A DNA stretch of 10,626 nucleotides from a virus (lineage: Duplodnaviria; Heunggongvirae; Uroviricota; Caudoviricetes), in IMG/VR virus record IMGVR_UViG_2529292985_000036, one strand, 5' to 3'. Below the pieces are notes generated by a model. It saw only the letters and a list, made by a program, of their open reading frames with translations. It did not search any database and was not told where the DNA came from. The position numbers were made by a program, and so were the translations under genes. Shown in pieces: positions 2,288 to 2,954 of the stretch; position 1 is the stretch's first letter; every line of letters begins with the position of its first letter.

Positions 2288-2954
2288 TCAAATAAAACCA
2301 GCTGCCTTCCGGCGTTCGTATTCCTGTTTCAGCCGTTCAATTGGCGTTGGCCCTTGCGGGTGTTTCGCCCCTTCCAGTTGTCGTCGCACTGGCGGAACAC
2401 TCATCCCGTTACCAACATGCTTTGCCCATTTCGTCAGTTGCCGTTCCGCAAGTCGTTTTAACTCACCCTGCGTCATCTGGCGCTCAATCCCTCTGGTACG
2501 CATTTCGAGGCAGATGTGGTACAGCACAGGCTGAGGCCACGGATATTTGTCGCTTCCGTCATATCGCCAGGACTCATCACGCCAGCGGCGGTACTCCTCC
2601 ATCACAGCATCCACCGTCAGGCCAAATGGATTGGCCCCCGCTTTCTGAAATCAGCGCCACAAACTCAGCCAGGTCCGGAGGCCATGTTTCACCCGCCCGG
2701 CAGCGGTCCATGCACTGGCGGCAGACCTGTCGGATTTGCTGCTCAGTCATCGCGCCAATCTGTGCAATCCAGAGCTTCGAAGGTGCGGCCCCGTTCTTCT
2801 GGGTCCAGCGGTTCGAATAAACCTCCCCCATGAGTTCCCACAGCTTCCAGACCGTTTCCGTCGCTGATAAATCCGTTTTCACGTTCCCACTGCTCACGTG
2901 CTGCCCGAATTTCCTGAACTGCCCGTGATGCGGTGCCACCTGGTGCTGCTGCAT
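2288..2954 (-). pseudogene. Lambda P-like replication protein (helicase loader) split into two frames by a frameshift near a C5 run (2635..2639)
   Basis: ORF 2577..2954 (...GAMTEQQIRQVCRQCMDRCRAGETWPPDLAEFVALISE) and ORF 2288..2614 (...DAVMEEYRRWRDESWRYDGSDKYPW...MTQGELKRLAERQL...) resemble consecutive parts of lambda P as I recall it (TTMEQVNAGMRVARRQNRPFLPSPGQFVAWCRE...VDMVYEYCRKRGLYPDAESYPW...LTDAELRRKAADEL). Frames switch within 2580..2650. Could be a true pseudogene or a homopolymer sequencing error. Confidence 0.6.

Follow-up and report, generated by a model that had tools for sequence, protein, structure and literature searches.

Origin of a one-base frameshift in the lambda P-family gene of a Shigella dysenteriae prophage: a private and probably artefactual run-length change

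Is the replication gene of this prophage broken in the bacterium that carries it, or only in the sequence deposited for it? The stretch of DNA analysed here, called the window throughout, is 10,626 nucleotides long and is an exact substring of contig AERM01000221.1 (GCA_000193895.2), part of the draft genome of Shigella dysenteriae CDC 74-1112, a strain identified through the protein records EFW48361.1 and EFW48365.1 and tied to its assembly by PMC6397287. [quoted passage not shown] We examined the locus against intact homologs, against near-identical assemblies of the same lineage and against large sequence collections.

On the minus strand, the reading of ORFs gives one frame (B) that is open from 2954 to its stop at 2577-2579, and another (C) that has a TGA at 2651-2653 and is then open down to a stop at 2288-2290. 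The features of the locus are:

2743..3783, minus strand: upstream replication-initiator-like gene with an HTH and a DnaT DNA-binding domain, 346 aa, intact; 8-nt overlap of its stop with the start of P.

2288..2750, minus strand: the whole P-family (helicase-loader-like) gene, as read with G4; 463 nt here vs 462 nt (153 aa, WP_000139457.1) in intact relatives.

2635..2639, minus strand: run of five G on the coding strand (C5 on the plus strand), the site of the +1 frameshift; one base longer than the G4 of all intact homologs.

2577..2750, minus strand: frame open from the native ATG, 57 codons made up of 38 native residues and 19 out-of-frame residues (GQSIWPDGGCCDGGVPPLA), ending at TGA 2577-2579.

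2288..2614, minus strand: 3' ORF in the other frame, starting at GTG 2614 (108 aa) or at ATG 2602 (104 aa); holds the whole Pfam-matched part.

The start codon of P is ATG 2750-2748, in an overlap with the stop of the DnaT-like gene that precedes it (ATGACTGA); the upstream ORF, when called at 371 aa, carries both the HTH and the DnaT DNA-binding domains in Pfam searches. This layout modifies the first picture in two respects. Two frames are indeed used, but they do not divide the protein into halves, since 38 of the 153 codons lie upstream of the break and 115 downstream. Furthermore, the ORF at 2577-2954 is mostly not P coding sequence: its bulk is an alternative frame of the 3' end of the initiator gene, and P begins only at ATG 2750. 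A scan of 2250-2800 for promoters and terminators returned nothing above shuffle expectation.

The position proposed for the frame switch, between 2577 and 2651..2653 and specifically at the C5 of 2635..2639, proved exact. When the minus strand of 2280-2760 is aligned with the intact 'replication protein P' genes of E. coli AR_0013 and ML35, 480 of 481 columns are identical, and the sole differing column is one extra G, GGGGG in the window (2635-2639) vs GGGG in both strains. Without this base the gene has 100% nucleotide identity to the two intact genes. Removing one base from the run, the remedy that the preliminary description had suggested looking for among intact homologs, does restore the frame, and recreates exactly the 153-aa protein WP_000139457.1; the indel falls at codon 38/39 of the 153-codon gene. 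In AR_0013 and ML35, P is a single 462-nt ORF of 153 aa, with an 8-nt overlap between its ATG and the stop of the DnaT-like gene. More broadly, a megablast search of 2250-3000 against 5,426 complete E. coli genomes matched 1,257 records. The best matches cover the 751 query bases with 750 subject bases, and the annotation of matching genomes runs from a DnaT-like ssDNA-binding protein to 'replication protein P' and then to a DUF1627 protein.

The assignment of the gene to the lambda P family is upheld. The 3' ORF of the window matches the Pfam family PF06992 (Phage_lambda_P) at 45.7 bits in its 108-aa form and 42.8 bits in its 104-aa form, for a cut-off of 26. The intact protein reaches 57.1 bits, above the gathering threshold, with residues 11-120 placed on profile positions 50-161 of 162. 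A phmmer search of PDB gives a weak but collinear match to 8v9t_V (E = 0.0037, query 19-125 to lambda P 95-202), consistent with the Pfam result, and another weak one to 8v9s_A (E = 0.0087). Lambda P has been divided into domains I (1-29/40), II (~30-119), III (~120-192) and IV, the C-terminal lasso (193-233) (PMC12661323). With these limits, the intact protein, like the 3' ORF of the window, aligns to the tail of domain II, to all of domain III and to the first ~10 residues of domain IV. The break lies near the boundary between domains II and III of this map, so that a real frameshift would remove everything aligning to domain III onward.

Resemblance to the lambda P helicase loader (PDB 8v9t, 8v9s) comprises, besides this alignment, the significant Pfam match together with a gene located directly downstream of an initiator gene and overlapping it. 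Among the differences, the protein has 153 aa vs 233 aa for lambda P, and it lacks a counterpart of domain I and of most of domain II, nothing aligning to lambda P residues 1 to ~76-94, so that the full four-domain architecture is absent. Sequence similarity to lambda P is weak, and the partner initiator is an HTH and DnaT-domain protein rather than lambda O. Phage phi80 gp14 ('replication protein 14') is, like the window protein, a short member of the family; it and its homologs in HK639, mEp237 and HK225 share ~45% amino acid identity with residues 25-153, a moderate relatedness only, and leave the first ~24 residues without alignment. Much closer are the PPompW prophages of EHEC (e.g. LC567836.1, LC567826.1), which encode full-length 153-aa homologs with 90% amino acid identity and, like the window prophage, adjoin ompW. 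They carry the intact G4, as does the E. coli chromosomal allele WP_000139457.1, whereas the window combines G5 with an IS1 in its ead/Ea22-like gene. The order of genes on the minus strand (cro-like, YdaT, DnaT-domain initiator, P, with an ATGA start/stop overlap) is that of the early-right operon position of a lambdoid prophage.

If the gene is intact in the strain, it would encode an ordinary short P-family loader. Its sequence context predicts a gene translationally coupled to the upstream DnaT-domain initiator gene, within the early-right operon of an ompW-integrated lambdoid prophage, and family membership suggests that the product would recruit host DnaB to the phage origin.

A break in a homopolymer could also be functional. 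The two-frame arrangement might reflect programmed ribosomal frameshifting, phase variation at the G run or, as the preliminary description had allowed, two genuinely separate genes; in its favour are only the location of the break, in a homopolymer, and a weak Shine-Dalgarno-like GGTGGA that the sequence shows 7 nt before ATG 2602. Homologs argue otherwise: each encodes its 153 aa in an unbroken ORF with G4, and the run does not vary in length among 400 genomes. A run of 4-5 bases is also far shorter than known contingency tracts. As for two genes, the 57-codon stub has no Pfam match, and the family match spans the break in intact proteins, which argues against separate genes. Conservation evidence contradicts all three forms of this explanation, to which we attach virtually no credence.

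The G5 allele was found nowhere else: it is a singleton that a single draft assembly carries. A 61-nt query across the run, matched to 400 complete E. coli records with the gene, gave a best identity of 98.4% (one gap) and never 100%; the same query detected no G5 in phage records. An exact 40-nt G5 pattern had no match in GTDB representative genomes and none in JGI metagenome contigs. At the protein level, exact look-up of four N-terminal products with the out-of-frame tail (start variants) and of the 108-aa GTG-start product of the 3' ORF showed all of them to be absent from a collection of 15 billion proteins, and a homolog search returned no protein covering the out-of-frame tail. The 104-aa form of the 3' ORF does exist as a database entry, EFW48365.1, with the GenBank product name 'Replication protein 14'; among the 10 contigs listed of 24 that carry this product, no other has G5.

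The most direct comparison is with assemblies of the same lineage. Five assemblies were aligned over ~20 kb each, picked by their exact integrase: the source assembly AERM01, PUGT01, the complete genome CP026840.1, AAUQHN01 and AAVUAU01. All four sister assemblies have G4, and at least one of them (PUGT01) also shares the IS1 junction described below. Over ~10.4 kb, PUGT01000641.1 differs from the window by no substitution, the only differences being G4 in P and TT at ~5076. Over 20,023 comparable columns, three differences are private to the source assembly. Each is an indel of one base (C4 to C5 in P, TT to T at ~5076, T3 to T4 at contig position ~19967), and no substitution is private to it. 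The other four assemblies differ from one another by four substitutions, an indel of a single base and a deletion of 27 nt next to an assembly gap. The two further private changes are:

5075..5077, no strand assigned: second private single-base indel, intergenic; CATAAAAA here (CAT-AAAAA) vs CATTAAAAA in all relatives.

AERM01000221.1 ~19967, outside the window: third private indel, T4 vs T3, frameshifting the chromosomal oppD.

The second lies between a cI-like gene (4595-5002) and a DUF1391 gene (5191-5343), and the four sister assemblies, E. coli AR_0013 and E. coli FDAARGOS_1260 all have the CATTAAAAA form. The third affects a gene of 337 aa that is intact in the four sister assemblies and is not called in the source assembly. 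At both the P run and ~5076, the window is the outlier vs AR_0013 as well. A window generally ridden with indels can be ruled out, as only 2 indels, with 26 substitutions, separate it from AR_0013 over 8.8 kb; errors, if present, are sparse, at ~1 per 7 kb.

Spontaneous substitutions outnumber indels roughly tenfold in E. coli, and the error typical of flow-based (454, Ion Torrent) and of nanopore reads is a miscalled run length. Against this background, the absence of private SNPs beside three private run-length changes, two of which break genes, is explained much better by sparse miscalls than by mutation. A G5 that is private, a G4 in every sister assembly and private differences made of indels alone favour the sequencing-error branch of the preliminary description, and the comparative evidence disfavours its defective-prophage branch. 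We infer that the three private indels are errors rather than mutations. In P, the extra base is most probably a run-length miscall made during sequencing or assembly of one genome, and the strain would then carry an intact gene. The pattern resembles homopolymer run-length errors of draft assemblies in several ways: a run gains one base in a single assembly, that assembly has further private single-base indels without substitutions, and genes that sister genomes keep intact are broken. It differs from them in the shortness of the runs, here 2-5 bases. Miscalls are less frequent in short runs than in long ones, and both the run of only 4 to 5 bases in P and the 2-base run in which one of the three private indels lies are points against the error reading.

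The deposited base might instead record a genuine and very recent +1 slippage in CDC 74-1112. P would then be truncated after 38 native residues, and the prophage would be replication-defective and cryptic, with no DnaB loading at its origin. The frameshift is, after all, present in the deposited sequence, homopolymer slippage is the commonest natural indel mechanism, and pseudogenes do accumulate in Shigella genomes; the prophage has already been struck by IS1, and selection on P may be relaxed. The sister assemblies may also be different isolates, in which case the mutation may be private to the strain. Nevertheless, no independent sequence of the lineage repeats the lesion, as would be the mark of a genuine pseudogene, and the allele is a singleton facing four near-identical assemblies with G4. 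Three private single-base indels without any private substitution in 20 kb, one of them breaking a chromosomal gene, is a ratio unexpected from real mutation. The ratio would not be expected even in a mismatch-repair mutator, because such a strain should gain many transitions too, and the private differences of the source include none. We consider a genuine mutation unlikely.

The damage caused by IS1, which had been read as consistent with a cryptic prophage, is real. Two features record it:

1..392, plus strand: end of an IS1 copy, comprising the 3' part of insB and the terminal inverted repeat ...gtcattacc; the insertion site is the ead/Ea22-like gene.

313-786: chimeric ead/Ea22-IS1 ORF, 157 aa (EFW48361.1 / WP_001209472.1).

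In AERM01 and PUGT01 the ead/Ea22-like gene is cut short by the IS1 end at 392/393; in CP026840.1 it is not. Exact look-up of the chimeric ORF retrieved two NCBI contigs with the same junction, AERM01000221.1 and PUGT01000641.1, both of which end inside IS1. Since this damage is common to a sister assembly that has G4, it has no bearing on whether G5 is real: the insertion is shared within the lineage and independent of the question of the G run.

Should G5 be real, re-initiation at ATG 2602 would yield a 104-aa fragment that aligns with domain III of lambda P and with the beginning of domain IV. Untethered from the initiator, it could still bind DnaB and modulate replication of the host or of superinfecting phages, a scenario that we hold to be very improbable.

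Lesions of other kinds affect P in further E. coli contigs, which suggests that the gene can decay in nature and lends some weight to a genuine mutation. Where the 104-aa 3' product recurs in other E. coli or metagenome contigs, its causes differ from G5 among the 10 contigs listed of 24:

L008: nonsense mutation TGG to TGA at codon 23 of P.

L009 and L016: +C insertion in GTGGCGCTG.

L013 and L014: short deletions in the 5' part of the P gene.

L010 and L011: junctions to unrelated sequence.

L007 and L015 (10 N) and L012 (>100 N): N gaps in the 5' part of the P gene.

Scaffold gaps of this kind recur near CATGGACCGCTGCCGGGCGG in several independent assemblies, L006/L019 (58 N) as well as L007, L015 and L012, always towards the 5' end of P. 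They may reflect a repeat boundary where lambdoid prophages share a host, or a loss of coverage in GC-rich sequence.

Practical consequences concern annotation. The deposited annotation of CDC 74-1112 calls the truncated 104-aa protein in place of P and drops oppD, and Shigella pseudogene counts or analyses of 'convergent gene loss' that use this draft would count both genes as lost. A real extra base would add a further ordinary inactivating mutation to a prophage that an IS has already disrupted. Artefact or routine prophage pseudogene, either outcome is ordinary and touches no open biological question; the value of the case is one of data quality.

Other observations concern the prophage as a whole. 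At window 9496-10626 and beyond (AERM01000221.1 10903-11541), its integrase abuts ompW, the attachment locus of the EHEC PPompW prophages. Its replication and immunity module has a counterpart of 99.7% identity in E. coli AR_0013, located there at tRNA-Ser / mtfA with a different, frameshifted integrase; a near-identical module at a different site with a different integrase indicates mosaic exchange of the integration module. Finally, a DicB-family ORF on the plus strand (window 6157-6450) is called at 97 aa, from a GTG start, in AERM01, PUGT01 and CP026840.1, and at 62 aa in AAUQHN01, AAVUAU01 and E. coli AR_0013. The aligned columns hold no sequence difference, and the difference in length is probably a matter of start-codon choice.
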